Below, piece by piece: positions 1-58,818 of a stretch of 64,000 nt of DNA. Every line of letters starts with the position of its first letter. The stretch's first letter is position 1. Source of the DNA: Candidatus Bathyarchaeota archaeon (GTDB lineage Archaea; Thermoproteota; Bathyarchaeia; Bathyarchaeales; DTEX01); contig CAVQNT010000002.1 of NCBI GenBank assembly GCA_963714275.1, positions 928,001-992,000 on the forward strand, written 5' to 3'. The notes under the pieces are model-generated. The model worked only from the letters and a program-made list of their open reading frames with translations. It had not been told where the DNA came from and searched no databases. The translations under genes were made by a program, and so were the position numbers.

Positions 1-211
1 AACTAGCTAGCCAGTCAGCTAGAAGCAACAAGAATGTCGCAGTATTCAGCCTTTTCGACCAGTTGGGGAATGAGTTCTGGAGGGTTCTCAGGTCAGCGTC
101 AATCGTGACATTGACCGAGTATTTAGCTAGTTTCATAGCCCGTGCGCAACTGTGACAAATGTTTCAATAGAACCTTTGTTCCGTAGGATTTAATAAGTAT
201 GAAGTGTAAAG

Positions 212-466
212 TTGGTAAGGGATGTAAAGATGACCCATGTGAAAGTAAGCTCAAAATATCAGATAACTATTCCAAAAGATTTCAGGGAGGCACTCAGCAT
301 AGAGGCAGGTGACCGGCTTTATGTTGGGCGGGAAGGTGGGAAGATTGTTCTTCACCCTTTCCCTAAGGTTACGAATCCAACAGATAAGCTGTATGGAAGC
401 GTTAGAGGCGAAGAGGATGCTGTTGAAGCTGTCCGAAAGTTCAGGAGAGCTGGGGGCAGATCTTGA
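212..466 (+). CDS. AbrB/MazE-type antitoxin (VapB-like)
   Basis: VKVSSKYQITIPKDFREALSIEAGD is a SpoVT/AbrB motif; overlaps the downstream PIN gene. Confidence 0.85.
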   Translation: MVRDVKMTHVKVSSKYQITIPKDFREALSIEAGDRLYVGREGGKIVLHPFPKVTNPTDKLYGSVRGEEDAVEAVRKFRRAGGRS

Positions 467-882
467 CATACTATATAGACACAAATGTATGGATTTACGC
501 CATGATTGCCCATCCAAAATATGGGGGAAAATGCAGGGAGATCTTGAGTAATATCGAGGCTGAGAAATTGGAGGCTGCCATTTCCACTCAAGTTCTAGGA
601 GAGATCACAGGAGTCTTATACAGCCAGTATAAAGTGAAAGATACGACGTCCCAACTCAACGCGGTGCTCTCCTACCCAATTGATGTCTACATTATTCATC
701 CAGATGTAATCAGAGTGGCAGCTGAGTACGCTCGAGACTATGGGATCACACCTTACGACGGAATCCATGTCGCCTCAGCAGTAGAAAACAATGTTAAAGA
801 AATAGTTTCAGCGGACAGAGAATTTGACAAGGTAGAGACAATAAGAAGAATAGACCCGATAGAATTCAGCTTCTCCTCCTAG
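463..882 (+). CDS. vapC: PIN-domain toxin
   Basis: YIDTNV, E, YDGIHVA and SADREFD acidic PIN motifs. Confidence 0.9.
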   Translation: MTYYIDTNVWIYAMIAHPKYGGKCREILSNIEAEKLEAAISTQVLGEITGVLYSQYKVKDTTSQLNAVLSYPIDVYIIHPDVIRVAAEYARDYGITPYDGIHVASAVENNVKEIVSADREFDKVETIRRIDPIEFSFSS

Positions 883-1115
883 GTAGGGTTCCATTAACTC
901 TTCTCTGGCTTTTCTGATTGTTTTTTCTGCATGTTTCTACGCGAACTCAGTGGTATTCCAACCTATAATGAGGTTCAATGCTTTCTCGCTCGTTCCAGGT
1001 TGTTGTAATTGGTATTTGACATGTCTTATGTCATTGTCGCTGTGACCTACGTACTGTAAGCATTCATTCTCCATCTGGATCGCTTTGAACTTAACGGGCG
1101 CATCTCTATACTTTT

Positions 1116-1370
1116 TTACTCATAAATGGTCTTTCTGTGACCAACATCTAAGAAGACGACAAGTTGAGGCTTTGGTTCGATTATGTATATAATTCTATAT
1201 TTGTCCATTCTCCATCGCCATCGTCCCTCAAGCTCGCCTCGTAATCTAACACCTGAATAAGGGTTATTGAGTATCTCGTCGATAGCCCTTAAGATCCTAT
1301 TCTTTATGTTCTCTGGGAGTTTCTTGAACTCTCTAAGAAAACTTTTGGTTAAGGCAGCTTTGTAAGCCAA
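1116..1370 (-). CDS. relE: RelE/ParE family toxin
   Basis: NPYSG..LRGELEGRWRWR..KYRIIY...GHRKTIY. Confidence 0.85.
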   Translation of the reverse strand: MAYKAALTKSFLREFKKLPENIKNRILRAIDEILNNPYSGVRLRGELEGRWRWRMDKYRIIYIIEPKPQLVVFLDVGHRKTIYE

Positions 1371-1379
1371 AGCCGTTAT

Positions 1380-1598
1380 TCACTCAGTAAATTTCTTAAT
1401 TTCACTGCTATTTTGAACTGTTATGTATTCTCCTTTCACGTATTCTTGTTCAGCCTTACGTATTCTCTCCAAGCCTTCCTTGTCCATTAACTCCTCAAGT
1501 GTTGTGAGAACCTCTTCAACTTTGGCTAGTCCCGTATAGAGGTCTTTTAACAACTCCTTGGGTATAGAAACGGTTTCTGCCACGCTATGCACCAGCAA
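1380..1598 (-). CDS. putative antitoxin partner of RelE
   Basis: small acidic ORF directly upstream of relE; ETLE-like/RKAEQEY..G pattern. Confidence 0.65.
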   Translation of the reverse strand: MLVHSVAETVSIPKELLKDLYTGLAKVEEVLTTLEELMDKEGLERIRKAEQEYVKGEYITVQNSSEIKKFTE

Positions 1599-1654
1599 TA
1601 TTTTTTCTCTAGCCTCTTAATTAACTTTCTCTCAATGTGGGGAGGCTTATTACG

Positions 1655-1707
1655 GTTCTCGTTCATTCCAGGTTGTTGTTACGACGGACACTCCATCCGT
1701 ATTCATG
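1655..1707 (-). pseudogene. N-terminal fragment of a GT2 glycosyltransferase
   Basis: near-identical to the start of 58819..59463 (MN.DGVSVVTTTWNERE). Confidence 0.7.
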
Positions 1708-2301: not shown

Positions 2302-2409
2302 GTTTTCTACCTAGTCAGCTAGATTCTTTTATCTTTATCTGGGATATCTAGCTGAAAAATAAAAAGTATTATGAATGCGCAGTATAGATTCCATATTCAC
2401 ATTCTTTAT

Positions 2410-2500: not shown

Positions 2501-2521
2501 ATAGCAGATTGAAGCGAGAAG

Positions 2522-3025: not shown

Positions 3026-3100
3026 TTAATCTAAATGTCTCCGGGATTCTTATATTTGGGTACCATAGTCAGCTTAGCTCGTAGAATGGTTTGGGTTTGG

Positions 3101-9620: not shown

Positions 9621-9795
9621 ATTGACAAAATGTAGCACAAAACACATAAATACAAGTCTGTCATGAGGAAGCTGGAGATGTCTTAGTTAGCTAAAGAAAA
9701 TAATTTTTATTTAGCGCGCGCGCTAAGATTATTCAATTCCGAATTCTTGTAGACTATAGAACTGCTGAAGGTATTCTACGCCTTTTTCAGTGGTT

Positions 9796-10334: not shown

Positions 10335-10653
10335 CCAAAGAAGACTATTTTAAGGTTCTCTAACAAAAAAGGATAGTTTTTACCAATATTAAACAAAAGA
10401 AAACGTTTTTTACCACATAAAGAAAAACGATCATACTATTTCTAGTTAATGGAAAAAATAATCCAATTTGTCCAATTTTGGAAAAAATTTAAAACGATCA
10501 AAATCTAGTTTACCGCTAGCTTAGTTAGTGATGGAGACAGATCTTGTTTAGGCTGTCCTGAGACTGAAACAAAATAATCCAACTAGAATTTCTCCGCAAA
10601 TTAATGAAATGTTCTAAGGCCTATTTTATAAGCGACCGTGCACATAATTATAC

Positions 10654-10872: not shown

Positions 10873-11336
10873 CTCGCGCTATCAGTTACACAACGGCTAG
10901 CTCAGCTAGTTATTCTAACTGTTAGCATAATTCCCCATTTTATTCTATTTCTCTATTTACCCATTTCTAATTTTAGTTTTTGAACTGAATGCATTGATAT
11001 TGCACACACAGTTCATTGACGTTTTCAATAACGTTCTTTCAATGCAGAACTCAACGAGTAAATCCTTTTACTCGAAGTTAGCTCAGCTAAAAAAGAGACC
11101 CAAGAAGCAAGGAAAAAATAAACGAAAATCCGATGATATCGATTCCGTACAGAAAAAACAAGAAACCTAACTCGCCATATGTATATCCCTTAAAAATAAG
11201 TTGGAAGCTTCTCAATAACCATTCAAATAAACCCACAAAAAATCCTAAACGAAAACGTGTATGCCTAAGCTTATTTCTGTAATAGTATTCAGCAAACCAC
11301 CAAATCCATCCGCATATTTGCCAAGAATTGCTTAAA

Positions 11337-18171: not shown

Positions 18172-18292
18172 AATCTGGAGGAAAAAACATAGGGCTAGCT
18201 AGATGTGTTTGTTTATTTGTTTTTGTTTGTTTAGCCTTGTATTGGTAAGTATGAGTATTGGAGTATAGGGGCGTAAGTAAGTTTGGGTTTGG

Positions 18293-31045: not shown

Positions 31046-31569
31046 AACATGTGTTGTTCAAATCTATAAAAAAAGATGCCCAAATGAGTAAACCCTAGGT
31101 CATTTATTAGAGATAATAGGGGTGAAATTTACTTTATTAGTCTTTTAACCATCAAATTGATTGATAAAATGAAGAAAACGAACGTAACAGCCACCAGCTA
31201 TAAGAATCTAAGAAGCATTGAAAGATCAGGCATGGTTGTGCCCAACAAATGATTAATTCATATGATTTCTCTTCCTTCAATTGTAGGACAGCGGTGAATG
31301 CTATTTTATGATAAGTCTGTTTCAGTCTGTTTTTTTTAAACAGGGTTTGAATTTGGCTTATCTCACGTATACAGAAGGTTGCAGAAGGCTACAAAAGGTG
31401 TTAGAAGTACAGGGAAGGCTGGTTGAAACATGCCCTTAACTGAAACTGTAGCTAGCTCAGCTGGTTTATTTTTGAGTCTTTAGTATTGAGTGGTGGCGAA
31501 ATGTGATAGTTTTTCCGACATATTTATTAATGTAAGATGCTTTATACTTTGTAAGGCGGAATTGGCTTT

Positions 31570-32246: not shown

Positions 32247-32330
32247 AACTATAGTGCAATTCGAAAATTATGGTTTTTTGTTCAGAAGAAAAGTGAAGGT
32301 TATCCATGATTGTCTATGTTGGCTAGCTAG

Positions 32331-32444
32331 ATTCTTATATTTAGGAGCCATCCTATGTCTTGGCTCCACCATATTAGGTAGATCTCTTTGAATCCATTTC
32401 GCAGGATAACTTCAACGGCTTTCGTTAGGTTCATAGTGTAATAG
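32331..32444. repeat. gene fragment duplicated at 47609-47722 (its first ~24 bp also at 3043-3066)
   Basis: ATTCTTATATTT..G..CCATCCTATGTCTTGGCTCCACCATATT shared. Confidence 0.85.
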
Positions 32445-32743
32445 TGAGCTAGCTATCCTAAACCAACTTTAACGCGTTCAACGTGGTATAAAATTCTGAT
32501 TTTTTAAGAAGAATGTTTCTGAATTTTCAAAATAGAAAAAATTGTTATCAGAAAAATATGTTCTGTAATTTAGTTACTTATTATTCTAAATATTAAATAT
32601 AAATATGTTGTATGTTTAGGTGAATGACTTGCGAAAGCATTCATTACCATATTTATTAATTTTAGCTAGATAGCTGTTCTAAGCCCTTTTTCATGCGGAC
32701 TGTGTGCTAAAGCAATGATCCTATATTATTCAACTTTACCTTT

Positions 32744-34437: not shown

Positions 34438-34477
34438 TCGACTAATAGTGAGTTATGAATTATGTATGCTAGAAGTG

Positions 34478-36514
34478 CTACCCTTGTTTTACATTGAATG
34501 AGACGTGAGCATTCCCCGTATACTCATAGTATTCGAGGCGGAGCGTATGGTCAGCGGTGTTTGAAAAGCTCGTTTTAAAGGAATAAGTGGTGTACGCTTG
34601 ATTCTTCCAGCCGTTAATTACCAGCTTGTTATCGATGTATAAGCGGACGCCATCATCTCCGCCAATCGTGAACGTCCATGAACCTGCTGCAAGGTTCACT
34701 TTTCTTGTTGACACGAACCCGATTTTGTCTGACCGGCTGTAAGCTATCGTCTTGGAGCCCCAGTTGTTATCAAAGTTCAAGTTGTTTTCATTTGGGCCTG
34801 AACCGAGTAGCTGCCCCCATGGACTATATCGGTTTCCCGAGTACACATACCATGTACGCGCCCATGACTGTACGCTGTTCCAGTTAAATGTAATAGTCTT
34901 GGGACCGTTCATAACTATTGAGCCGCTTGTTCCAGAGCTTGATGCGTCTCCCGAATAGCCGGTGCAAGTATACTGTGTTCCTGTGCTATCGCTGGCAGGT
35001 GAGGTTACTGAGAATGATGCAGTAGAGTCTGAATTGTACCAGCCTGCTCCGACTGGGGAATCGTAGGCTGAGTTGACTGTTAAGTAATATTGGGTTTGAT
35101 AGTTCGCTGTAACTGTTTGAGGTGACGAGGGAACTGTGTAAATTATGTTACTTCGAGTTCCACCATCACTCCAATCAACCCAAACATATTTTGTTCCACT
35201 TTCACTGCTGACCAGCGATATAGCTTCCAAAGTATGCTCAGAACCTGTATTCCATGAGTAGGTTTGTGGAGTTGTTACTGCGTTGCCATCAACCTTGACA
35301 AAGCCTAAGCCTGTTGGGTTTGATGTTATCGTAATTGTTACAGGTTGCGATTCTTCAGTATGTAATGGATGCTCGCTGAGCCAGTCAAAAATCTCCATTT
35401 CTCTGCTGCTGATCAGAATTGAAGCGTCATGAGCAACACCTGGTACTTCAATATACTTCACTGTGTATCCGAGTGCACTCAGGCTCTGGTATAAATTACG
35501 TGATTGACTTACACTTACTACGTTATCAGCGGTTCCATGCAGTATCAATACCGGTGTTTGGCTAAAACGTTGTTCATTTCCTAGGGCGCTTTCGTCTGCG
35601 TATATGTCAGGAACGTCGCCTGGAGTTCCTCTATATGCCGCCATCAGCGAGTCTTTGTAGGTTGATGTTTCGAAGTAGAATTGGGTGAAATCGGTAATTC
35701 CGTGTATGTCCACCAGGCTTGCTATTACATGGTTGCTAAACATGGCGTATTTGAGTGCTCCGCCTCCGCCCATGCTGTTTCCCATGATGTGTATGTGGTT
35801 GGTGTCGATGTTGTAGTCGCTTCTTATTGTGTTCATAACATCGGTTATGTCACGTCTTGATGGTTCAGTGTACCAGTTCTGGTAACCGCTGACTGTACGG
35901 CAGTCTACTGATGCAACTATCCAAATGTTGCTTTGGAATGTTTGCCTCAAAGACGAGTACTTTTGTGGGTAGCTGAGTCTGCTGCCTCCGTAGCCGTGTA
36001 AGAATATTACGAGGGGAGTGGGTGCTGAATTGTCAAAATTGTCAGGTAAATCCAGCCAGTAGTATCTTGTGCTGCCATCGTAGCTGGCTGTGAACGTCAT
36101 GTCTCCTCGGAAGAGGTTTATTGTTATTGTTCGTTTCTGACTACTGATTGTGGTTGTTCCATCAAAGCAGGTTATCCACCACCGATACTGTCCATTTAGT
36201 ATGGGAGAGGAAGGTGTAATTGTGGTAGATACACTACTTACCACATTATTGTTAGTTCCATAAGACTTTGGAGTCCTGGATGAGGTTTTTTGAAGCCAAA
36301 GGGTACAGCTTACCGTTGAAACACTAGAATCTAATGTAAAACTGAAATCAGGCTCATTATCCATCGTTACGGTGTAATCTAGCGGGGAATCAAGGGTGAT
36401 TGACATTGCCGCCGCCGTGTTCGACGGCACCAACATTGGTATTAGAAAAAGAATTAATACGAATGAGACTGCAATCTTCTTGGTCTTGGGATCAACGATA
36501 AAATTTTTTATCAT
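34478..36514 (-). CDS. secreted alpha/beta hydrolase with repeat domains and C-terminal PA14-like domain
   Basis: FLHGYGG, GNSMGG, HGTADNVV, H; GGDDGVRLYID...LEYYEYTGNA. Confidence 0.85.
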   Translation of the reverse strand: MIKNFIVDPKTKKIAVSFVLILFLIPMLVPSNTAAAMSITLDSPLDYTVTMDNEPDFSFTLDSSVSTVSCTLWLQKTSSRTPKSYGTNNNVVSSVSTTITPSSPILNGQYRWWITCFDGTTTISSQKRTITINLFRGDMTFTASYDGSTRYYWLDLPDNFDNSAPTPLVIFLHGYGGSRLSYPQKYSSLRQTFQSNIWIVASVDCRTVSGYQNWYTEPSRRDITDVMNTIRSDYNIDTNHIHIMGNSMGGGGALKYAMFSNHVIASLVDIHGITDFTQFYFETSTYKDSLMAAYRGTPGDVPDIYADESALGNEQRFSQTPVLILHGTADNVVSVSQSRNLYQSLSALGYTVKYIEVPGVAHDASILISSREMEIFDWLSEHPLHTEESQPVTITITSNPTGLGFVKVDGNAVTTPQTYSWNTGSEHTLEAISLVSSESGTKYVWVDWSDGGTRSNIIYTVPSSPQTVTANYQTQYYLTVNSAYDSPVGAGWYNSDSTASFSVTSPASDSTGTQYTCTGYSGDASSSGTSGSIVMNGPKTITFNWNSVQSWARTWYVYSGNRYSPWGQLLGSGPNENNLNFDNNWGSKTIAYSRSDKIGFVSTRKVNLAAGSWTFTIGGDDGVRLYIDNKLVINGWKNQAYTTYSFKTSFSNTADHTLRLEYYEYTGNAHVSFNVKQG

Positions 36515-36609
36515 TTACCTTACCACTAATATAAAGAAAGGGGGTATTTTTCCTATTATTACTTGTGAAAAAAGTAATTGAGTGTTCTAGAAATTAATGC
36601 GTGTTTGAA

Positions 36610-36706
36610 TGTGTTGTTGTGTGATATACGGGATATACGTGATACGGAGTAAGGTAGAGAGAGATAGAATAAGAATAAAAGTGTGTGTGGTGACTAAATT
36701 TTAATC
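36610..36706. repeat. leader-like end plus site GACTAAATTTTAATC (36692-36706)
   Basis: site identical to the Cas1 element TSD; followed by TTTTTCTTCTT. Confidence 0.85.
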
Positions 36707-37200
36707 TTTTTCTTCTTATTTGTTCTCATGCGTTCGTGTATGTTTGTGCTTAGTGTATAGGTGAAGGTGTAAGTGTGTTTCACTAGCTCTATTTGCGAAG
36801 TTCGTAGCTTGTGATCTTGACAAATCTAATTCATTCGTTTTTGTTTCCTTCCCAACTACATAACCTAAACCCAAAAAGCCTAGAATCGTTCGCATTATAG
36901 TGTAAAAGTAAGCGTTCCACCAGCCCATCTTGAAAAACGGGGAAAACTCCCAGTAACTTACGCTATAGTACCAACTGTTAAATCTGGGAGCTACAATCAT
37001 CCAGTCTAAGTCAACAAGTCCAGAAGTTAACAAAACGACGGAGCCGAGAAGCAATAACACGGTTTTATCATTCAATGTTTTTCCCTCAACGTTTCTTCTA
37101 GACTTAGACTATGATTTTCATTCAGACTTCAATTCTCCAAAAAAAATTAAGGAAGCCAATAATAAATGTATGAGAATGAAAATTATGAATTTTACCTTCC
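36692..37200. repeat. segment duplicated at 49081-49590
   Basis: near-identical; both copies start at the palindromic site. Confidence 0.9.
36716..37075 (-). CDS. small membrane protein (copy 1)
   Basis: nearly identical to 49179..49481. Confidence 0.6.
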   Translation of the reverse strand: MNDKTVLLLLGSVVLLTSGLVDLDWMIVAPRFNSWYYSVSYWEFSPFFKMGWWNAYFYTIMRTILGFLGLGYVVGKETKTNELDLSRSQATNFANRASETHLHLHLYTKHKHTRTHENK

Positions 37201-37544
37201 TCTAATAACCAAACCAAAATCAAAACCTTTTCCTATTTTATATTTATTTTACACAAATAGCTAGCTAAGTGTTTGGAATCATGGAAAAGGGGGAATCAGT
37301 TTCAAGGCATATTATGCCCCCTTAACCAGACGGGATTCACGATGTTTCCACTCAAAATCGCATGATAAAAAGTCTTATAAAAATTAGAGAACCATTAATA
37401 GCCATAAAACCGTTAGCTGCAGGTAATAGCGCGCGCTAGCTAGAATGCAAGTCACGGAATCTACAGGAAAATGTGCATATAGCTCAAGTCCAGTTTTTAT
37501 CTATTCAAAGACTTCTTTCTTAACCATGAATTTGTTCACTAAAC

Positions 37545-38399
37545 AAAGGAAAACTTCACTGTATCATTTTGCCCACTACACCTTTGGAGATTATGTGACC
37601 ATGAGCTCTCCAGAGCTTGAACAAACTGCTCATTATCCCATCTATCGAAATCGTAGAGGCACAACCCGACAATATCCATGTTGAATTGCCTACCCAGAAG
37701 CTCTTCGTATCTTAGTAGCTCAGTAGTCTTTGCATAGTCAACGAAAACCTCAGGTTCTCCAGCAACACGTAGTCCCGTAAATCCAGCTTCTTCTTCTCTT
37801 CAACAAGTGCCGTCCAATTGGATATAATTGTTTCAGATTTAACCTTTCCCCTTTTCAATGAACCATTCATAAGCTGACTTCAATGTAAAAGCTTCTTTTT
37901 CTAAGTTGTCAAGGTCAATGCCATATCTCTTGGCTTCTCGAACCTTCGAATCCAACTTGTTTTCCGATACTAGGTATACAACCGCTTCATTTTTGAGTAG
38001 TCCCGCTTTTAGGTATGGAAATGTTATCCTGTTTTTGAAGTCTTCATCAGTATATAATGCTAAGGCATGGTCTCCTAACCTAAGATTTTGGGCATATCTC
38101 GCGCATTCTGAGCAAAACAAAATAATTGAACGAAAATCCTTAATCACTCCAGTCAATAACCTTCCTTTGTAAGTTAAACGGTATTTCTTACTTGAAGGCT
38201 CAAGTTCAACGAACTCCTTCAGAATTCTTAAATGATAACCAAAATCGCCATGATTACTCTTACCAATCATGTTAAGGAGTTCTATAAATGACAAATTTCT
38301 ATCCAGCAAACATTCTACAATCTCTCTCCTAGCGGGATGCGAGATGACTTTAAAGAATCCATTATTAAACTCGTTCTGAAGATTCATAACTTCAAGCAT
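37545..38399 (-). CDS. ArsR-type wHTH plus MEDS sensory-domain protein (frameshifted)
   Basis: HPARREI...GYHLR.L; GDHALALY...YLKAGL..NE.VVY; downstream TGLRVAGE and LCLYD. Confidence 0.8.
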
Positions 38400-38780
38400 G
38401 AAAGAATATTATCAATTATTTATCTGTTTGGTGAAATAAATTTCACTTGTTGTAACTGATTAGCTACGGCATTTTTACTTAGCTTTGGCTATATCTAAGG
38501 CTGGTGTAACCACAAGTGATGATGGCAGCGACAGCTTCTTCAAGTAGTGAGCTATTTCACCTATTGGAACAGATTTCCAGATAACAGGACCTTAATTGAA
38601 CAGCCTAATCCAATAAAAATTAAAGTTAAGATTCCAGTTCCTAGCTTTTGGCTTATAATACCCTTAACAATTGCAGTCTTTTTAAAAAACTATCATAGTC
38701 TGATCATTCTACGTGTGATGTGGAGAAAAGTGTAGATATGGAAGAAAGAAGGTGGGAGTGCGTAGAAATGTGTGTATGGA

Positions 38781-38795
38781 GATTAAATTTTAATC
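38781..38795. repeat. palindromic site GATTAAATTTTAATC
   Basis: preceded by GTGTGTATGGA. Confidence 0.75.
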
Positions 38796-38867
38796 CTTGT
38801 TATTAGCCAAGTATTTGAGAGACGGAAAAGAACCGTGGATGCCAAGGATTGCAGTTACATCAGGTAT

Positions 38868-39107
38868 CTAATGTTTTGATCTTACATTTGGAAGTTTTCC
38901 CAGTTCATCTAAGCCTATCAGGAAGGTAGAGATTGAAGATAAGGCAGTAGACACTAGGAAGATTGTTAATAATTGGTTGTTTTGGGTTAAGGGGAAAGTG
39001 GGTGTTACCAAATTGGTTATGGGAAGGTAAATTGCCAGAAGCGAAACTATCCATATATTTAGAATAATAAAAAGAAAAATGTATAGTAGCTTCTTTTTCG
39101 GGTTCAA
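38868..39107 (-). CDS. small membrane protein
   Basis: two TM helices; follows 39119..39646. Confidence 0.55.
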   Translation of the reverse strand: MNPKKKLLYIFLFIILNIWIVSLLAIYLPITNLVTPTFPLTQNNQLLTIFLVSTALSSISTFLIGLDELGKLPNVRSKH

Positions 39108-39118
39108 GTTCTGTTTGC

Positions 39119-39646
39119 CTAAGTGCTTTCAGCTGTCACTGTGATAGTTACAATAGTTGACTGATTTGAGGTAACTGATTTAGCTGTGGTGGTTACTTCG
39201 AAGTCGAAGGTCCAAGTTCCTAGCACGTCTAGAGTGATTGCGCCAGAGTTTGGCGAAGCTAATGATAACGTGCATACTATTTCATTTATGCTATGGGCTC
39301 CTCCGGAGGGTTTTGTGATAATTTTTACGGCAACGTTGAATGTTGAGTAATAGGTGCTTTGGCTTGCTAGGTTACTGCTCAAGTGCATGTAAACGTTGGT
39401 TTTTGTTGTTGTAAGCGTAATGGCTGCTCCAAGATTCGTAACATTTGATTTCGTATAAAATAGAGTCTGTCCCTCTTCCAGATTATCTAAAGTAGAATTT
39501 TTCAAAGTTATAGTTGCAATCTCTTTAATGGTCTGCGTTACTTGTTGCTGTGCTTGTTCATAGACATATGCTGAAACCGAAACTGCAGCAATGCTCAGTA
39601 TTAGAAAAAGAACACTGAGTAAATTCTTTCTTTCCAATATAGACAC
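39119..39646 (-). CDS. secreted/surface protein (VSAYVYEQAQ family)
   Basis: paralog of 1780..2301. Confidence 0.75.
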   Translation of the reverse strand: MSILERKNLLSVLFLILSIAAVSVSAYVYEQAQQQVTQTIKEIATITLKNSTLDNLEEGQTLFYTKSNVTNLGAAITLTTTKTNVYMHLSSNLASQSTYYSTFNVAVKIITKPSGGAHSINEIVCTLSLASPNSGAITLDVLGTWTFDFEVTTTAKSVTSNQSTIVTITVTAEST

Positions 39647-39760
39647 TCCTGTATTTTTTTTAATTTAACTTGAATTCAGTAATTTAAAAAACGTTATGAA
39701 CATACTGTATGAACCCTTAATTCATTATTTTGAAATACTGATTATACAACTGTTTTTTTA

Positions 39761-40831
39761 ATGACTAAAAAATCGGTTCAGTTGGTTTTCCTATTAATCA
39801 TAATAAATTTTATGATACCTAGCTTTGCATATGCTTTCATTTATGAGCAGCAATCACTTAACTTCACTCAAACAATAATGAAAAAGTGGTTTAATAATAA
39901 TTGGAATTATCGAAAAAGTCATATTATTAGTGGGATTGGAACAAACGCAGGAACTAACTACCAGATTAGGATTGTTGTAGTAAATGGTACTGGAACTGAC
40001 AACGGAGAGACGGTATATATTAATAATAAGGTTAGAAGCGATTTCGGTGATATCCGATTCACTACTGTAAACGGAATTCTATTGGATTATTGGCGGGAAT
40101 CTTTGAATGTTGATAAGAATGCAACTTTTTGGGTAGAGATAGCAGGCAACTTAACTGGACAAATACAAACAATCTATCTTTATTATGGCAATCCCATAGT
40201 AACTACAACAAGCAGTGGAGATAATACCTTCATATTCTTTGACGATTTTAGCGGAGACTTGAGCAAATGGAATATTCACATAGATACGGATGTAGTCATT
40301 ACATCTAGTTATGGTAATCCGGCTCCAAGTTTGGAAATAGGTGGGGGTTTTACAGATTGGCCTTATGGATTTGCCGTTATTGGTTCAGACGCAATTTATA
40401 CTGGGTTCCAAAATGGCATAATAGAGGCTGATGTTTACCCGGCAACAGACGCACTTCCCGAAATTATATTCAGAGGAAATTATTCAGCAAATACTGGCTA
40501 TAAAGGAAGATGGGATTGCCGTTCTGACGAGGAATCACCATGGATGACACCTCCATATAGCGATTGGGAAGCTTTCGGCGACGATGTAACGAGATTTGGC
40601 ATTGCAAATCAGTGGCAAAAAGTAAAACTAGCCATAAATGATTCCACATTCGAGATATACAGCAATAACAACCTTAAGTCCACTGTAACAGAAACACAGT
40701 ATTCAGGACCAGGTGAAATTGGATTAGCAAATCATTATGGGGCATACGCCAGGTTTGATAATGTCAGAGTAAGAAAATATGTAGAGCCTGAACCTTCACA
40801 TGGCATTTGGGGCAACGAACAAACCCGTTAA
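39761..40831 (+). CDS. DUF2341-domain secreted protein
   Basis: WNYRK, DFGDIRFT, LDYWRE, FWVEI, IYLYYGNP, FIFFDDF, VRKYV.PEP. Confidence 0.85.
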   Translation: MTKKSVQLVFLLIIINFMIPSFAYAFIYEQQSLNFTQTIMKKWFNNNWNYRKSHIISGIGTNAGTNYQIRIVVVNGTGTDNGETVYINNKVRSDFGDIRFTTVNGILLDYWRESLNVDKNATFWVEIAGNLTGQIQTIYLYYGNPIVTTTSSGDNTFIFFDDFSGDLSKWNIHIDTDVVITSSYGNPAPSLEIGGGFTDWPYGFAVIGSDAIYTGFQNGIIEADVYPATDALPEIIFRGNYSANTGYKGRWDCRSDEESPWMTPPYSDWEAFGDDVTRFGIANQWQKVKLAINDSTFEIYSNNNLKSTVTETQYSGPGEIGLANHYGAYARFDNVRVRKYVEPEPSHGIWGNEQTR

Positions 40832-40847
40832 TGTATTGTAAATAGAG

Positions 40848-41039
40848 TCAGCGAGCTCTCATGCAACGATGTAAATGTTGTGTCTTGATTTCTCGTTCAC
40901 ATCTTTCCATTTCACGATATTTTCCGCAGTAGCCTACCTCGCCAAGGTTACGGCATGTGAACGTACTCGGCTGATAATATTTGCATTTATATGAGTATTT
41001 ACATGCGAAGAAATTCTTTAGAATCGTGGTAATCTGCAC
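40848..41039 (-). CDS. small Cys-rich protein; the region 40860-41250 is duplicated at 52471-52865
   Basis: C..C..C..C pattern; conserved in both copies. Confidence 0.55.
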   Translation of the reverse strand: MQITTILKNFFACKYSYKCKYYQPSTFTCRNLGEVGYCGKYREMERCEREIKTQHLHRCMRAR

Positions 41040-41641
41040 ATAGGGTCACTCGAGTATTATAATGCCTAGTATCTTTCTGCAGAGAGAACTAATGATTTGT
41101 GAAACGCACATTCAGAGTTCAGTTTAGAAGGACTGACTCATAGGAAAAGAAAAAGTGAAAAAACAAGAATGAAAGAACGAGAAAACGGATAAAAGGTTTG
41201 GGTTAAGGGATTGAAATTTATTAGATGACTGCTAGAAGATATCTGGAAGACTTAATATTATATAGTCTTTTATCAACCGATTTTACGGACAATTATCTTT
41301 GCCCACTAATGTTAGTTAACCGAACGAACCTTCCCGTCTTCAAATCTCTTCTCTCTCCAATGTAATATAATGACCAACCAATGAACCATAAGAAACCAGA
41401 TTGCTGGAAGAGCTGCAAAAACAAACAGTCTACTTTTGCCATGCCTACCTTCAATTGACATAATAGCAAAACATAATCTCACTAGAAAAAGCGTTAAGCA
41501 GAACACCTGATCCCAAGGAGTACAATATCGGCATAATATGATCATGATGCCCAGCATAATGAGAAAATAAAAATACCCCTAAAAGATTCACCTAGCATTG
41601 TGATGATACATCGTCAAAGTTTGTCAAAGAGTGTGAAATAG

Positions 41642-41854
41642 ATGGAACAAAAATCAAAAATGCTTGGAGCGATCGTTATTATTGGGTTTGTCGGATTTCT
41701 ATTAGGCATAGCGGTTAACTTCGTCTACTTTAAAGCATTGCCAATCCTTCTTGAGGTCTTTCCTCAAATCTTGGAGATGGATTGGATAATGTGGGGACTT
41801 GTCGGAGCTTTTCTAGCAATAATATGTTGCCTAATCTACGCATATCTACCATAA
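41642..41854 (+). CDS. small membrane protein
   Basis: two TM helices. Confidence 0.65.
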   Translation: MEQKSKMLGAIVIIGFVGFLLGIAVNFVYFKALPILLEVFPQILEMDWIMWGLVGAFLAIICCLIYAYLP

Positions 41855-41893
41855 AGGATGAGGTAGTGTTCTCCCGAACCTAAAGCCTTTGAG

Positions 41894-42586
41894 GTGAGAT
41901 GTTTGATAAATGAATCTACTCTTCAATATATTTCGTCAAGGTGGACGGATTCTGAAGGACAGATGATTTCAACATGTTCAGTTTATGATCCAGTTCAAAT
42001 TGAAATACAAGTTGAGAATCCAATGCGAAAAAAAACAATTTCAAGCCTAGTAGAGGTGGAGATCTACAGAGATACTGTCACCTTACTTGCCGAGAAGGTA
42101 ATGAAAGAATTCTTCGCGTTGGCACTTTCTCCGCTTTCAACTGAAAAAACGCTTGTCAATTTCACACCTTCGCAGGAATCAAGATATCACTACAAGATTC
42201 GAATCGAAAAAAAGGAAATCTACTGCCAACCGAAAAGTAATCCTCCAAGGCTATATGCTTCTAAGAAAGAAAGTACTCTCACTTTAGACGAACCCTTAAG
42301 TATCGTTCAGGCAAATTCAACTATACATTTCACTGGAAAAATGGTCAGCACTAATGAAGGAGAAAGCATAGATGGAGCCAGAATCCATATTTTTGACGTA
42401 AGACGTACGAGGAGGGATAACCTTATGGCTTCTGGGACTACTAGAAGCGATGGGACTTTCAACATAGAATGTATAGTCAAAAGAATGGGTTGGTGGCGCA
42501 ACACCATTGATATCTATTCAAAGTTTGATGGAGACGACGTATATAAGCCATCGGTAGGCAATCGATACACTATTAGGTTGACATAA
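41894..42586 (+). CDS. Ig-like domain protein
   Basis: FTGKM...IDGA.I...TRSDGTF...FDGDD.YKPS. Confidence 0.65.
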   Translation: MRCLINESTLQYISSRWTDSEGQMISTCSVYDPVQIEIQVENPMRKKTISSLVEVEIYRDTVTLLAEKVMKEFFALALSPLSTEKTLVNFTPSQESRYHYKIRIEKKEIYCQPKSNPPRLYASKKESTLTLDEPLSIVQANSTIHFTGKMVSTNEGESIDGARIHIFDVRRTRRDNLMASGTTRSDGTFNIECIVKRMGWWRNTIDIYSKFDGDDVYKPSVGNRYTIRLT

Positions 42587-42737
42587 AACTCGAATAGTCA
42601 GCTAAGTAACGGCAATGTACTTTTAACATCTAGCTGGTTAACGATGAGTCCAGAAAAAGAATTTAGGTATAGCTCTTGGATTTGGTGGTTTGCCTGTTAC
42701 TACCACAGAAACAAGCTTAGACATACATGTTTTCGTC

Positions 42738-42844
42738 TAGAGTTTTTTGTGCGATATATGTCTGTCTGTCCGTCTCTCCGTCTGACTGATCGTCACGGAA
42801 GGTAGAGAGAGCGTGTGTTTGGGTTTGGGGATATAAATTTAATT
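42738..42844 (-). repeat. leader-like end plus degenerate site GATATAAATTTAATT (42830-42844)
   Basis: CTAGAGTTTTTTGTGCGATATA...GTGTGTTTGGGTTTGGG then the site. Confidence 0.7.
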
Positions 42845-42950
42845 ACTTAGATGCTGTTAATACGAGATGAATATTCAGAATACTTTTTTTACCATTGGAA
42901 TCTGAAAAAGTAGAATTCTTAACGGTTCAATTAGCTGTTTTCAATTTACT

Positions 42951-44150
42951 TTACATTGCTGTTGATGGTGCCAATTTGTTGCCGCACTTGTTACAGTATG
43001 TTGAGTCGCCCGCGTTTTCTGTTCCGCAGTTTGAACAAATCAACATCGTGTTGTTAGGTGTAATCTTCCTTGTCGTGTTCACGTTGTCCAGAGAGAATGG
43101 AGGTGCCCACTGGAAGCCTTTTTTGTACGAGTAAATGTAGGGTATGGCGAGGTCTACGTTTTTGCTTGCTTGTATTGCTTTGTAGACCTTTTTCGAAATT
43201 TCGTGTATTACTATAGGTCTGTCCGTGGCTAAGGTCATAAACCTGAGCCTCATAAAGACGCCGTACCAGTCAGTCATATCCGCTCGGATGTATGGCTCTT
43301 GGCCCGTTTTTTTGATAACATCTGCAGTCACTTCTTTTGCTGCGTCGAGGAGAATTTTTTCTGCTTCATCCCAGTCTGAGTCGAAGCTCAGCCGCAATAC
43401 GAACTCGTCAAGCATGAAGGCGGATTGAGGCGACCCAGCCATTGCTTTACGTTTGTTCGACAGCTCAATGAGTTCGCCCTGATCCTTCGGAGTGTAATTT
43501 ATTACAAGCGCACTGAACAGCATGGCGTTTGGGATCAAAATGGTTCTGTTCGCAGGCTCCTCGCTTCCTACGCTTCCTCCTACCTGATTCAATATCGTGT
43601 ACAAGGGCGTAATGTGGACGACATCGCCCACAAGCGCATAAGAGGGAAGCTGGACCCTGTCTCCGACGCTGAACGGTCTGATTACAGAAACGAGAAACCA
43701 AGCTGCGAGACCGCTTATGGGTCCCTGTAGAGACCATCCTAGGAACATTCCGCCGAAGGATGCGAAGATAACTCCAAGAGTTCCTAACGAAAACCAACTT
43801 GACAATAACGTGAGTATTCCAACCGTTATTATGATGAACTTGTAGACTCCCTGAAGCATGCCGACCTCGCCTTCTTTTCCTCCCATTTTCAGCATCAGCG
43901 ACTTGAGGAAAAACGAGCCTATTCTGTAAAGAACTATAAGGCTGGCAATGACAAGGACCAAAACAATGAGTTGATTCGTGTATTCGAAGGGAGCAACAAG
44001 CGATTCTCCGCCGAGCTTAAAGTACCAGAAAAGAAAAATGCCTGTGATGACAATTGTTAAAGGCAGAACCAATTGCTCTTTTTTCATTTCGAGCACGACT
44101 CCGAGTGATAAAACTATTAAAAGAAGCAACCATTCATTTAAGTGTTCCAT
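42951..44150 (-). CDS. mscS: MscS-family mechanosensitive channel with C-terminal zinc ribbon
   Basis: LGWSLQ..ISGL, RPFSVGDRV, GDV..I, IPNA, NYT; CxxC...CxxC. Confidence 0.85.
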   Translation of the reverse strand: MEHLNEWLLLLIVLSLGVVLEMKKEQLVLPLTIVITGIFLFWYFKLGGESLVAPFEYTNQLIVLVLVIASLIVLYRIGSFFLKSLMLKMGGKEGEVGMLQGVYKFIIITVGILTLLSSWFSLGTLGVIFASFGGMFLGWSLQGPISGLAAWFLVSVIRPFSVGDRVQLPSYALVGDVVHITPLYTILNQVGGSVGSEEPANRTILIPNAMLFSALVINYTPKDQGELIELSNKRKAMAGSPQSAFMLDEFVLRLSFDSDWDEAEKILLDAAKEVTADVIKKTGQEPYIRADMTDWYGVFMRLRFMTLATDRPIVIHEISKKVYKAIQASKNVDLAIPYIYSYKKGFQWAPPFSLDNVNTTRKITPNNTMLICSNCGTENAGDSTYCNKCGNKLAPSTAM

Positions 44151-44280
44151 TACATATGAGTGACAAAGCTAGCTAGCAAGCATATCAAGAACAGAAAAGA
44201 CAGTAACAGCAATTATTGATTCTTGGTGCAATCGTAGTAATAGTGGTTGTAGTCGTCGTAGCAGTGATGATGCGAAGAAA

Positions 44281-44397
44281 AAGATAAAAACGGCGTCTTT
44301 TCTGCTGTTAATTTTCGATAGACTCGATTCTCACTCCTTTGTCCGCAACTTTCGTGATGTAAGCTTCTCCGCCTTCCTTGTTTATGGCTTGTGCAAC
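44281..44397 (-). pseudogene. 3' fragment of the GHMP kinase gene (copy of 59529-59645)
   Basis: near-identical; identity ends at TAGTCAGCTAG. Confidence 0.85.
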
Positions 44398-44449
44398 TAG
44401 TCAGCTAGCGTTCTCGCACTCTCTGAGATTTCTTTCGTGTTCATTTGAG

Positions 44450-46704: not shown

Positions 46705-46960
46705 TACTTAGTAGGAAAGTAATACTTAAGTCTTTTATCCTTACCAGCTGGTTCAGTATTAAGCGAAGCATGAATATTCATGAATACGTTTTCGGACTTC
46801 CATGTTTCGGGCATTTCCTTTGTTCGCGGTTCCTGTAACGTGAGCTTCTTTTGGTTCATAGTACCATCTCTGTTTTTAGATTTGCTATCCGGTTTGCGTT
46901 TTTCGAAGTCCTGCATTCTGAAGAGAAGTAGTAGTCTCCATAATATTTAGGTCAGTTAGC

Positions 46961-47137
46961 TTAGCTTTTGGAAAGTAAGCCTCGTCCTATCTGTTCGCCT
47001 TTGTGGACTGGAACAACTGTTACTCGCCCATCAGCGTGTTTCAATATCACGTGACTGCCTCGTTGTCTCACAGGCTTAAAGCCGATCTTTTCAAGTACTT
47101 TTATGATCTTCCTAGCTGGAAGCGGTCTTAAGCTCAC
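46961..47137 (-). pseudogene. hicA: HicA toxin, C-terminally truncated (58 aa; not in the ORF track)
   Basis: manual translation MSLRPLPARKIIKVLEKIGF..VRQRGSHVIL.H.DGRVTVVPVH.GE.IGRGLLSKS*. Confidence 0.8.
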
Positions 47138-47357: not shown

Positions 47358-47947
47358 TGTCTTACTGGTATTCCGTGGCTCTTATATTCTTTTTCTCAGA
47401 CATTGTTATCCCGCGTGCTTTTTATAATATCTTTAATGTCTGGAATAACCGCACGATAGAGTGAAGCTCTCGCTTTTCCGTGTTTTTCGTTTTGTCCGTC
47501 CTTTGTTTTAGAGGTCGGCGCGAAGCCTTAAGATATATGGGTTGTTTGGGACTTAATTAACGCCCAGAGAATTCTCAGGTTGGCTTTAAGGGTGCCTCCG
47601 GTTCTGGGATTCTTATATTTGGGTACCATCCTATGTCTTGGCTCCACCATATTAAGTAGACATCTTTGAACCCGTTTTGTTGGGCTACTTCAACAGCTTT
47701 CGTTAGGTTCATAGCGTAATAGATCATTATGCTGGCTTAGCTTCATGCTGTATTCAAATGATATTTTTAAAAAAAAAGTTTTATTTTTCCAAAAATAAAA
47801 AAAGTCAGCTAGCTACTATTTTTATATAAAAGACTTATGTGGTCATTCATTTTACTCATAGAAAAGTATATTTTATGTTGATTTTTTGTGAATTGAAATT
47901 GGTAACTTTTTAATACTTTTTGTCACTTTTTGTTACTGGTGTTAATT

Positions 47948-55335: not shown

Positions 55336-55626
55336 CCTTCCTTCCTTCCTTCCTTACAAGAATGCTAGCTCAGCTAGATTCTTTAGATTTCAACCGATAA
55401 CATGGGAGGATACTCTTCAGCCATTCTGAAAATAAGTTCCTCTTCCCAGTAGACCTTAAGGTAGAATCCATGTCCTAGCTAAGCTCACTAACTATCCATA
55501 ATGCTATACTTCACTCTCTAACAGAGAGATAGATAACAAACACGCAACACAAAAAAATAACTTTGAAGAATTTATAAGACATAAAAGTATATATATTTAT
55601 ATTATCGGAAAAAGGGTTAGGTTGAT

Positions 55627-56637: not shown

Positions 56638-57282
56638 AAGATAAGATAACGTCTGCTTACTTAATCAAAATATTCGAAAAAATAGCTAATGATGTTACAG
56701 AATCTAAAGATTTCATCCGTGAACTTGATGCAGCCGTAGGAGATGGCGATCTCGGGGTAACCACATCCGACTGGATTAAAGAGTTTAAGAAACGGTCTTG
56801 TTGAACTTTCAGACAGTGATATAGGAACCATCCTGATTAAATGCGGTATAAACTATAACAAGTCTGGGGCATCTACCTTTGGAACGCTATTAGCCATAGC
56901 ATTAATGAAAGCAGGAAACGAGGTAAAGGGTAAAAATGATGTTGATCTACTCGACCTTGTAAAAATGGCTAATGCAGCTGTTCAAGAAATCAAAGATCGT
57001 GGAAAGGCGCAAATAGGCGACAAGACGATACTCGACGTTTTAGTGCCCGCTACTGAAGCGTTGCAAAGTGCATATAACCACAAAAAGAATATGGCAGAGG
57101 CTTTGGATGAAGCTTTAAATGCTGGTGAAGAAGGCTTAAAGTCAACCATACAAATGAGGTCGAAGGTTGGTCGTTCCAGCTGGCTGGGAGAAAAAACAAT
57201 AGGAAAACAAGATCCAGGCGCTACTGTAATTTATCTAATGCTTAAATCATTCACCGAATTTGTGAAATCACTAGCTGACTAG
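56622..57282 (+). CDS. dhaL: dihydroxyacetone kinase subunit L (frameshift near 56770)
   Basis: ELDAAVGDGDLG, GKAQIGDKT.LD, GRSSWLGE...DPGA. Confidence 0.9.
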
Positions 57283-57292
57283 AAAAGCAATA

Positions 57293-57482
57293 GTGGTTTA
57301 TGATTCTAAATTCGGTAATACCGAGAAGATCGCAAAAGCACTTAGTTGGGGAATGAGAAAGAATGGTTTCTCGGTCGACTGCGTTAAAATAGATACTGTT
57401 GACCCAACAAAACTCGCAGACTACGATCTGCTGGCTATAGGGGCTCCCACACAAGCTTTAGGTATATCTGGACCGCGCGCGC
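57293..57482 (+). pseudogene. truncated flavodoxin
   Basis: VYDSKFGNTEKIAKAL...YDLLAIGAPT; homology ends at CGCGCGCGC. Confidence 0.8.
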
Positions 57483-57547
57483 TGTCTCTTCTTTTTTGGG
57501 GTTTCTTGATTATTGCTTCTTTCAGGCTATTGAATTCTTTTTACCTC

Positions 57548-58542
57548 TTATTTGAAGACTTTGACAACCTTGTCGTAGTATGTTTCCACTTCTTCGTCTG
57601 TTCCTTTTCTAGGATAGGTGAGAAAGGTGGTCACGCCTATATCGATGCGCTTCTGTATCTGATCGATGATTTCGTCAGTAGTGCCAATTAGGTTCCAATC
57701 AACATACTCTTGCGTCAAAGGCATTAGGCCTCGAGTGAATTTCAGACCCGGAGTCCTCTCAACTATGTCGACCAGCTCCTCTTTGCGACGATAAATTATT
57801 AACTCAGAACTCCACTGTTTCTTTATCTCATCATAGTTTCTACCCACTACCTCACAATGCTTCTTCAAAACATTCAACTTATGCTTATACGATTCCACAC
57901 TTCCAAAAAAGTTCCATTCGTCAGCCTCCCGAGCGACTACCCTGAGGGTCAGTGCTCTCCTCCGCCGCCAATCATTATTGGTGGTCGGGGTTTCTGAACG
58001 GGTTTAGGCTCACAAATCGGATTGTCAATTTGGAAGTATTTTCCCTTCCATTTTGGACTCTTCTCAGTCCACATCATCTTGCATATTTTCACGGCTTCCC
58101 TCAACTGTGCGATTCTAATCGCTGGCTTGGGGAATAGCATACCATAGCCTCTATACTCTTGTTCGGCCCATCCTGCTCCGATGCCCAATATGACTCTTCC
58201 ATGTGAAATAAAGTCTATGTTAGCCACCATTCTCGCTAGGACGGCGGGATTGCGGTAGCCGACGGCGACGACCGTCTCTCCCAGTTGGGCTCTCTTCGTT
58301 ACGGCTGCGATGGCTGCTTTGGTTGTCCCCCATTCAAGCATTGCTCCTCCTTCCCAGGATAGGTGGTCGCAGCCATAAATGGCATCGTAGCCCAGTTCAT
58401 CACATTTTATGGCCATGCTTGCGACTTTATCCCAGTTGACTTCCGATTTTGTCTGACCTGCCACATCTCTATACCAGTGACATCGATCGAGGATAATTCC
58501 AAATTTTATTTTAGCCAATTTAGTCACCACATCGAATGTCAA
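57548..58542 (-). CDS. LLM-class flavin/F420-dependent oxidoreductase (frameshift near 57950)
   Basis: DH, YRNPAVLA, GRVILGIGAGW...EY, PKPVQKPRPPIMIGGGGE. Confidence 0.9.
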
Positions 58543-58615
58543 CTTTTAAAATAAAAGATTTTATGGTTGAATTGATTCGCGCGTGCTTTGAATTGGTTTG
58601 GGATTTGGGTTTGGG

Positions 58616-58630
58616 GATTAAAAATTAATG
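58616..58630. repeat. degenerate palindromic site GATTAAAAATTAATG
   Basis: preceded by TTTGGGATTTGGGTTTGGG. Confidence 0.65.
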
Positions 58631-58818
58631 ATGATTATTGGCATCAAAACAAGCCAGTTTCGATGGACATAGTGCACTATACTATTCTACTTTGAGTGTA
58701 AGTCAGTTTGAAGGCATCTGGGATTCTTTTTAGCTAGCTTAGCTAATTTTTAAATCTCAACAGGGCAATGACTTGAATAAAGTAGAGGGACACGTTATTC
58801 CTGTACCAATATCTTTTT

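Follow-up and report, generated by a model that had tools for sequence, protein, structure and literature searches.

Stop-codon-rich clusters in a bathyarchaeal genome are copies of one short palindromic repeat that is enriched at the boundaries of duplicated segments

The stretch of DNA analysed here (the window, 64,000 nucleotides, G000:C2:928001-992000) comes from Candidatus Bathyarchaeota archaeon, an archaeal genome (G000) of 2.64 Mb in 10 contigs with a G+C content of 0.43. Short runs of stop codons and their complements are scattered through the intergenic DNA of the window, and the question they raise is what they are and why some of them stand where duplicated segments begin or end. 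The original prediction regarded these clusters as variable assemblies of TAG, TGA and TAA and as junction scars, left either by non-templated or snap-back filler synthesis or by a recombination signal. The clusters prove to be copies of a single short palindromic repeat dispersed in the genome, (C/T)TAG(CTAG)nCTA(A/G) with n mostly 1–3, and they occur at segment boundaries more often than chance would place them there. As to its role, the repeat may tentatively be seen as the terminal or target sequence of a process that moves or recombines DNA and acts on gene modules.

To count as a cluster, a run had to consist of stop or anti-stop triplets no more than 1 nt apart, to be at least 10 nt long, and to include at least four triplets and AGCT. 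There are 31 such clusters in the window, 28 of them outside crude open reading frame (ORF) calls, and the strings quoted in the original prediction were all found at their positions, including both flanks of 32331-32444 and 47818-48540. The core of the repeat, TAGCTAGCTA, is a tandem of CTAG/AGCT and a perfect palindrome, and the 12-mer carries stops in all six frames. Genome-wide, the clusters total 568, against 305 in a third-order Markov simulation. Intergenic DNA has 38 copies of TAGCTAGCTA where 0.4 are expected, 132 of AGCTAGCT (10.2 expected) and 89 of CTAGCTAG (7.8 expected). Neither CTAG (observed/expected 0.91) nor AGCT (0.95) is avoided in the genome. The bases around AGCTAGCT extend the pattern, with T at -1 in 84 of 152 cases and A at +1 in 82, and the periodicity fades outward. 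No conserved flanking sequence was found around the clusters, nor, in G000, any constant distance to the start or stop of a gene; they also occur upstream of genes. Reading the cluster ends as direct repeats, that is, as a target duplication, was considered and rejected: the forms TTAG...CTAA (5) and CTAG...CTAA (12) dominate, CTAA...CTAA occurs twice, TTAG...TTAG was not seen, and the TTAG...CTAA ends are inverted rather than direct. Full-text searches of the literature, supplementary files aside, brought up no account of (CTAG)n clusters occurring naturally at breakpoints in archaea.

The repeat has a companion. In the distant relative G145 (loci L101-L110) it occurs together with a different palindrome, TAGC(GC)nGCTA: 30 copies of CGCGCGC lie within 100 bp of clusters there (2.2 expected). 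The window has this second palindrome too, at 9711-9727 and 37427-37443. G000 has 70 copies of GCGCGCGC, about five times the expectation from base composition; here the second palindrome could partly be a miscall.

Sequencing errors of this assembly, consisting of miscalls at AGCT, largely account for the variety among the clusters. Such systematic miscalls produce the TCAG, CTGA and CTCAG units that appear to contain TGA, one or more of which is present in 22 of the 31 window clusters, and also the false 13-mer YTAGCTSAGCTAR. Read-derived contigs from four runs (X1–X4) of four other studies could be placed on 42500-49700, with no cover over 48766-49006 and some other parts. At 42598-9 the contigs of three runs (X1, X2 and X4) have CT for TC, at 45367-8 those of three runs (X1, X2 and X3) have AG for GA, and at 46953 a C is absent in one (X1), each restoring CTAG. 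The remaining differences are whole units, with 4 nt missing at 44399 and TAGC added at 45361. All five differences listed, at four clusters, are thus either CTAG in place of TCAG or CTGA, or a step of 4 nt. The two copies of a 9-kb segment with 98.1% identity differ mainly within clusters, by multi-base swaps such as TAGTCAGCTAAG versus TCACTCACTAAG. Among paralogues that are at least 96.5% identical (12 pairs, 19.4 kb), 58 of 385 AGCT columns differ (15.1%) compared with 1.66% outside AGCT, and the control palindromes GATC, TCGA, TGCA and CATG differ at 2.2–3.8%. Isolated AGCT sites are affected as well (41 of 134 differ), with the variants AACT, CACT, AGACT, AG-T and AGTT.

The sister species G002 has clean clusters, YTAGCTAGCTAR, and none of the 13-mers YTAGCTNAGCTAR, of which G000 has 36, with C or G at the centre in 32. 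Errors of this kind also reach into genes. At C2:860652, G000 has TTAGCTCAGCTAC inside a conserved TrmI-like gene, with a frameshift at exactly that spot, while the G002 orthologue has TTAGCTAGCTAC in frame, encoding Leu-Ala-Ser-Tyr. Similarly, a GHMP-kinase gene (59556-60692) is divided into three ORFs by two single-base indels relative to a 93.7% identical paralogue, and these are probably consensus errors. The variable TAG/TGA/TAA make-up of the original prediction is not borne out, then: the TGA/TCA units read CTAG in the contigs of other studies, in G002 and in the TrmI-like gene. From the pattern of variants we infer a base modification of AGCT in this organism, and long reads prone to miscalling it as the basis of the assembly. 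Several N4/N6 methyltransferase genes are present; a C5 methyltransferase was not found in G000 by profile search. In this species-representative assembly the miscalls create false frameshifts and pseudogenes, as in the TrmI-like and GHMP-kinase genes, and annotation and pseudogene counts taken from it therefore need correction.

Rather than being spread evenly, the clusters bunch in islands, for example at C2:280-420 kb and C2:920-1000 kb, and the window sits in the second of these. It has the gene content of such islands (five MazE/AbrB-PIN pairs, ParE, HicB, Cas1 fragments and many partial or split ORFs) and, by self-BLAST, is a mosaic of 80–98% identical copies of other parts of the genome. 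Duplication ends were taken as the ends of self-BLAST high-scoring segment pairs (HSPs) of at least 100 bp and at least 80% identity. Nine of the 28 intergenic clusters of the window lie within 20 bp of an HSP end, where random intergenic positions give a mean of 4.27 (standard deviation 1.89), and 35 of 2000 random sets reach nine. Across the genome, 85 of 408 AGCT clusters are near a duplication end; the rate at random intergenic positions is 5.55%, and AT-rich stop clusters that lack AGCT give 92 of 1377. Seen from the ends, the core word is present within 12 bp at 142 of 1065 unique HSP ends, against 2.6–5% at positions shifted by 50–300 bp and 1.6% at random. The association with breakpoints is real and amounts to an enrichment of about 2-fold in the window and of nearly 4-fold across the genome. 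Clusters thus mark the boundaries of duplicated or shuffled segments above chance, as had been proposed, but the claim that a breakpoint usually has one is too strong in both directions: most clusters of the window lie elsewhere, and in only 154 of 608 end pairs does one partner or both have a cluster immediately beyond the homology. Both partners have one in 20 pairs, in which the homology typically enters the cluster and halts there.

Alignment with the sister species G002 and G004 adds to this. Among 15 copies of TAGCTAGCTA in their loci, six are within about 35 bp of a break in synteny with G000, seven lie in non-homologous, species-specific gaps, and two are inside homology, one of these being the coding copy. 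The repeat therefore stands in or at the edge of species-specific DNA, and within this genus clusters are not equally common in conserved syntenic intergenic DNA, the outcome that had been named as fatal to the idea of breakpoint scars. In the motif-rich lineages described below, the two kinds of DNA look closer to equal. The modules that neighbouring clusters enclose in G002 have their counterparts on different contigs and in different places of G000. In G145, ATTAGCTAGCTAGCTCTTG replaces about 540 bp that are present in its congener G138, and G138 has a near-seed, ATTAGCCAG, where G145 has a full cluster. Some copies are kept at syntenic positions without any rearrangement, and one is in frame within a conserved gene of two species.

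The distribution across the class is patchy. Counts of the core 10-mer are 45 in G000, 17 in G002, 4 in G004 and 0–3 in the 38 remaining close relatives. Among 301 genomes of the class, most have 0–2, and the motif-rich exceptions (G145 with 209, G150 with 111, G094 with 105, G112 with 81, G138 with 60, G176 with 20, and several with 8–11) are spread over at least four families. Counts of a reversed control pattern are unrelated to those of the core, and copy number jumps from 0–2 to 60–209 between related lineages of similar base composition. None of 62 copies in G145 and G150 lies in an ORF, a result nearly forced by the stops that the motif carries. The surrounding genes are convergent at 17 of these copies, tandem at 27 and divergent at 12, with 6 at contig edges, and the neighbours include TFIIB, QueT, diphthamide synthase, Hsp20 and ribosomal proteins. 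G112, which is a single contig, has dispersed copies with hot spots; in one of these, 20 kb long, clusters spaced 50–400 bp apart follow or overlap the end of nearly every gene. Arrays of 2–5 units are seen, and both the end bases (TTAG..CTAA, CTAG..CTAG) and the number of units vary.

In one group of genomes the motif forms the ends of a multicopy element. The non-coding repeat at L104:13166-13850 of G145, about 475–680 bp long, has at least 30 matches in that genome and many in G094 and G138; no long ORF was found in it, and no Rfam match. Ends were compared in 13 distinct matches of at least 250 bp in loci from the three genomes. On the left, a clean cluster stands directly before GTTTTGAAT in 7 of 13, with a degenerate form in one more; in all, 17 left ends match with at most 2 mismatches. 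On the right, ATTCAAA is followed by a cluster in 6 of 13 (in one of these six the cluster is degenerate), and the flanks beyond are unrelated. At either end, the element of about 475 bp combines the motif with a 7-nt inverted repeat, TTTGAAT. As far as the sequence can tell, this is the anatomy of a miniature inverted-repeat transposable element (MITE) whose terminal inverted repeat starts with the motif; the repeat could be a MITE or an undescribed family of RNA genes. No direct repeats are visible outside the cluster, and a 4-nt duplication of CTAG/AGCT would be hidden inside it. G000 shows only low-copy analogues, such as a 166-bp element (C6:470519-470684) with clusters at both ends.

The patchy distribution with high copy numbers, the MITE-like family and the excess at boundaries favour a process that uses the motif as an end or target. 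Under this reading, segments bounded by the palindrome would be copied, moved, inverted or deleted. Since a palindrome is its own reverse complement, any copy could serve as a left or right end and pair with any other. Growth by 4 nt might come from a staggered cut with fill-in, from target duplication or from slippage. A dedicated enzyme would presumably act at the motif; its nature and the succession of steps are, like its existence, deduced. Of the two origins offered by the original prediction, the recombination signal is a viable one; the filler synthesis, taken up below, is not supported.

Several observations weigh against an end or target process. About 79% of the clusters genome-wide are away from any detectable duplication end, and in 134 of the 154 breakpoint pairs the cluster is one-sided. 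Copies flanked by clusters at both ends number 14, where 11.3 are expected if the ends are independent. Module edges lie at variable distances from the clusters, which argues against precise site-specific recombination. Nor did the profile searches reveal an enzyme; their negatives apply to the profiles used and to genomes that are 65–100% complete, and novel families are possible. G000 has no match to DDE_Tnp_1 (PF01609), Y1_Tnp (PF01797) or RVT_1, and a single weak match to DDE_Tnp_4 (PF13359) below the family cut-off. DDE_3 (PF13358) has matches in 16 of the 301 genomes of the class, all motif-poor. The ten genomes of the motif-rich family f31, 65–91% complete and including G145, G094, G138 and G112, have no match to Y1_Tnp; rve (PF00665) gives one sub-threshold match among them, in motif-poor G127, and the TnpB zinc ribbon (PF07282) two, in motif-poor G120 and G123. 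Tyrosine recombinases number 6 in G145, 1 in G094 and 3 in G112, compared with 8–11 in many motif-poor genomes, and so do not track the motif; one N4/N6 methyltransferase of G000 does not track it either. A bolder form of the same reading is rather unlikely. It would make the 12-bp palindrome a universal, orientation-free transposon end or cassette border in several lineages of this uncultivated class, with which an enzyme of an undescribed family could move, invert, delete or capture any cargo between two copies; staggered cuts with fill-in would add CTAG units, and the joints would be silenced against read-through.

Other candidates for a part in the process were tried and set aside. Cas1 was considered as an integrase and dropped, having no link to the motif; G000 has two intact Cas1 genes (C7:144376-145197 and C4:100381-101202) and five fragments, and the copy in the window (6184-7189) is split in two. 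A CRISPR-like repeat suspected next to two clusters proved to have a single copy in the genome. A 441-aa protein between two G145 clusters has no Pfam match but contains an SGGxDS motif, which we take to be the signature of PP-loop ATPases, and thus does not resemble a transposase. The NCBIfam scan of 21 unannotated window proteins returned no transposase-like match.

The alternative that survives best dispenses with an enzyme, and is somewhat unlikely. The motif would be a passive (CTAG)n microsatellite and a fragile palindrome, growing by replication slippage wherever stops are tolerated, in non-coding and decaying accessory DNA; as all copies are identical and self-complementary, ordinary recombination through short homology, or breakage, would turn them into end points of rearrangements. 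Arrays of up to five units fit this, as do the 4-nt length differences between populations at 45361 and 44399 (part of those against G000 perhaps being miscalls), the near-seed in G138 at the site of a full G145 cluster, and the concentration in gene-poor, duplicate-rich islands. A non-coding location is also to be expected when coding DNA is barred in most frames, and the negative enzyme searches and the level of both-end flanking, which is not above chance, point the same way. Against it, doubled AGCT (152) and CTAG (108) stand apart from the other 14 palindromic tetranucleotides of G000, which give 3–77 in doubled form. With two or three units, an array is shorter than those in which slippage is usually of consequence. 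The abrupt jumps in copy number between related lineages, and the motif as the exact end of a multicopy element, also speak against a passive repeat.

Filler at the junctions of double-strand breaks is improbable. On this view, a polymerase would add a self-complementary repeat to broken ends, any two of which could then anneal and be ligated. What the filler explains well is the one-sidedness of the breakpoint clusters. At 22, 31449, 32330/32444 and 44397, clusters adjoin truncated gene fragments whose intact source copies have none (the events being unpolarised); fragment ends overlap the cluster by only 0–3 nt, and the ~540-bp replacement or deletion between G145 and G138 has a cluster at its junction. 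However, the same defined palindrome occurs in distant families of the class, and a sequence fixed to this degree excludes both truly non-templated synthesis and copying from the local flanks; snap-back copying of arbitrary ends would not produce it. Numerous copies are at conserved syntenic positions or between intact housekeeping genes, with no break visible. The machinery is not apparent either: Ku (PF02735) has a match in one of 41 genomes (G040) and none in G000 or six other genomes of the genus, and the RVT_1 search for a reverse transcriptase was negative in G000, as stated.

It is quite improbable that the repeat is a selected insulator, meaning a six-frame stop, a bidirectional terminator or a protein-binding site that gene modules carry along as a border. 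Stops in all six frames, convergent genes at 17 of the 56 classifiable sites in G145 and G150, and the G112 hot region, where nearly all genes have a cluster after or across their stop codon, would suit such a role. People have chosen the same sequence as a six-frame stop spacer (PMC5399434, PMC3082526). Most genomes of the class manage without the motif, though, and in G000 it keeps no fixed distance to gene ends and also lies upstream of genes and in divergent spacers; moreover, selection alone offers no route to an identical 12-mer at hundreds of sites. The last alternative, that the clusters are man-made spacers from the concatenation of contigs or else assembly or library junk (this second possibility had been raised in the original prediction itself), is very doubtful indeed: CTAGCTAGCTAG is documented as exactly such a spacer for joining contigs (PMC5399434, PMC3082526) and the assembly has its systematic AGCT errors, but read-derived contigs from three independent studies span cluster 45362, so the clusters are not assembly linkers, and their end bases and unit numbers vary, they can lie 50–400 bp apart, and two species share a copy that is in frame inside a conserved gene.

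Table 1. Clusters and related features of the window, with positions in window coordinates; other parts of the genome are given as contig:position.
Feature	Position	Strand	Remarks
Cluster CTAGCTAGCCAGTCAGCTAG	3..22		Adjoins truncated copy 22-144 of the GT2 gene intact at 59126-59247
Cluster CTACCTAGTCAGCTAG	2307..2322		6 bp from start codon of minus-strand ORF 1780-2301
Cluster AGTCAGCTTAGC	3067..3078		End of 24-bp match to 47606-47629
Cluster TTAGTTAGCTAA	9683..9694		
Second palindrome type TTAGCGCGCGCGCTAAG	9711..9727		Paralogue C7:217783 has TTAGCTAGCTAGCT; real TAGC(GC)nGCTA or miscall
Cluster CTAGCTTAGTTAGTGA	10516..10531		Left end of 98.9% copy (10515-11055) of C5:168259-168800
Cluster CTAGCTCAGCTAGTTA	10897..10912		Central C probably a miscall
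Cluster TTAGCTCAGCTAA	11078..11090		
Cluster CTAGCTCACTAA	11665..11676		9 bp past end of 92% copy (11235-11656) of C6:470088-470510; source also cluster-ended
Cluster GCTAGCTAG	18194..18202		Start of short multicopy segment
Cluster CTAGCTCAGCTAA	25851..25863		
Cluster TAGCTAGCTCA	31449..31459		Exact right end of 90.7% copy (31234-31449) of C3:55971-56185; source clusterless there
Cluster GCTAGCTAG	32322..32330		Left flank of 115-bp captured fragment 32330-32444
Cluster TAATAGTGAGCTAGCTA	32439..32455		Right flank of fragment 32330-32444; source 47608-47722 clusterless at both ends
Segmental duplicate, 9.1 kb, 98.1%, inverted, same contig	34456..43573		Of C2:80457-89565; differences mostly in AGCT/cluster words
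Cluster TAGCTAGCTAA	37258..37268		Identical in 98% paralogue C2:80457-89565
Cluster TAGTCAGCTAAGTAA	42595..42609		Paralogue TCACTCACTAAG; three other studies' contigs TAGCTAGCTAAG
Cluster AGCTAGCTAGC	44167..44177		12 bp past end of 88.6% copy (42973-44155) of C6:438984-440168
Cluster CTAGTCAGCTAG	44397..44408		End of 120-bp copy (44278-44397) of 59526-59645; 4 nt fewer in two other runs
Cluster TAGCTGACTAA	45362..45372		Three studies' bridging contigs read TAGCTAGCTAA; extra TAGC in two
Cluster TTAGGTCAGTTAGCTTAG	46947..46964		C of TCAG missing in one run
Cluster TCAGCTAGCTACTA	47805..47818		Left end of 94% copy (47818-48308) of 13642-14126
Cluster TTAGCTAAGCTAA	48557..48569		Provides stop codon of ORF 48186-48560
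Cluster CTAGCTCAGCTAG	55365..55377		
Cluster TCACTAGCTGACTAG	57268..57282		Between partial Dak2 ORF and partial flavodoxin ORF
Cluster TTAGCTAGCTTAGCTAA	58730..58746		Left end of 2.9-kb 93.7% duplicate (58736-61634) of C2:789838-792738; homology stops inside the cluster in both copies
Indel sites relative to paralogue	59940..60376	-	TAGCT as TACT at 59940, CAGCT as CAGACT at 60376

The positions of the clusters and of the features discussed with them are collected in Table 1. The inverted 9.1-kb duplicate listed there carries genes for an alpha/beta hydrolase with a PA14 domain, a MEDS regulator, a DUF2341 protein and a mechanosensitive channel. At the left edge of the window, the GT2 gene that is intact at 58819-59463 has a second, diverged version (22-1779), into which two toxin-antitoxin modules are set: AbrB/MazE-PIN (145-899) and a ParE pair (949-1655). 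Each module replaces 20–97 bp of the gene, and there is no clean cluster at the insertion edges. Another recurrent sequence, GGGTTTGGGA(C/T)TAAAATTTTAATC, is followed by low-complexity CT/GA-rich DNA at 3088-3132, 18278-18335, 36696-36713 and 49068-49109 and on several other contigs; it has the look of a promoter or leader shared between loci, or of a further boundary element. The low-complexity DNA at 3099-3230 is an inverted copy of 9394-9522 (95.5%). Dak1, a dihydroxyacetone kinase (55627-56634), has its best relatives in bacteria (64–66%; Actinomycetes and Chloroflexia metagenome-assembled genomes), with a single archaeal match, at 57%, among the best 80, which suggests acquisition from bacteria. 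Outside the window, at G000:C1:77972-79801, 1.8 kb have been inserted relative to G002, and a duplicated tRNA 3' end (..CCCGYCCGGGGCTCCA) flanks them; this is a classic integrase-type insertion, unrelated to the clusters. Among tetranucleotides, GGCC is strongly avoided in G000 (observed/expected 0.34) and GATC (0.66) and CCGG (0.65) moderately so, which hints at restriction systems with those sites.

If the repeat is an active site of recombination or transposition, it would explain why G000 is about 0.5–1.4 Mb larger than its congeners and why it is a patchwork of diverged duplicates. It would likewise explain the lineages with 60–209 core 10-mers in a globally common class of sediment archaea, and would point to an as yet undescribed DNA-processing enzyme with a very short palindromic site.

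Among known systems, the motif resembles the repetitive extragenic palindromic (REP) sequences and the termini or footprints of MITEs, and fails the tested defining features of these. With the bacterial REPs and the bacterial interspersed mosaic elements (BIMEs) that they form part of, mobilised by the Y1 transposases called RAYT, it shares the short, palindromic, non-coding character, the tens to hundreds of copies, the restriction to certain lineages and the presence at boundaries of rearrangements and insertions. REPs are imperfect palindromes of 20–40 nt that can form a hairpin, however, whereas the present motif is a perfect tandem tetranucleotide palindrome of 8–16 nt without conserved flanks, and a Y1 transposase was found neither in G000 nor in the 10 genomes of f31. 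The likeness to MITEs and cut-and-paste transposons lies in the family of about 475 bp with inverted-repeat ends in the genus of G145, in the patchy distribution and in the 4-nt length steps; IS630/Tc1 elements are said to target CTAG, and IS5 elements YTAR. The differences are that the motif-rich genomes searched have no match to DDE_3, DDE_Tnp_1, rve or TnpB, with no corresponding autonomous element found either, that no target duplication is visible beyond the motif (one of 4 nt would be hidden inside it), and that TTAG...CTAA is inverted and not direct.

Integrons also have small gene modules, many of them toxin-antitoxin pairs, bounded by a recombination-prone palindrome. Their attC sites are imperfect palindromes of 60–140 bp, in one-directional arrays beside an integron integrase. 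The present site, compared without an attC model, is 8–16 bp long, dispersed (as in G112) and found with both gene orientations and imprecise module edges; integrase counts are unrelated to motif counts. End-joining filler offers a parallel in short palindromic insertions exactly at the junctions of unrelated fragments. Known fillers, such as the templated insertions of polymerase theta and the P nucleotides of V(D)J joining, copy local sequence or are random, unlike this single fixed sequence of distant lineages, and Ku was not found in G000 or the other genomes of its genus that were searched. The man-made spacer CTAGCTAGCTAG is the identical 12-mer with the same six-frame stops, but the present motif is natural, appears in independent read sets, and varies in its ends and in its number of units. 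With tetranucleotide microsatellites, finally, the repeat has in common its tandem units and a length polymorphism that proceeds by whole units.

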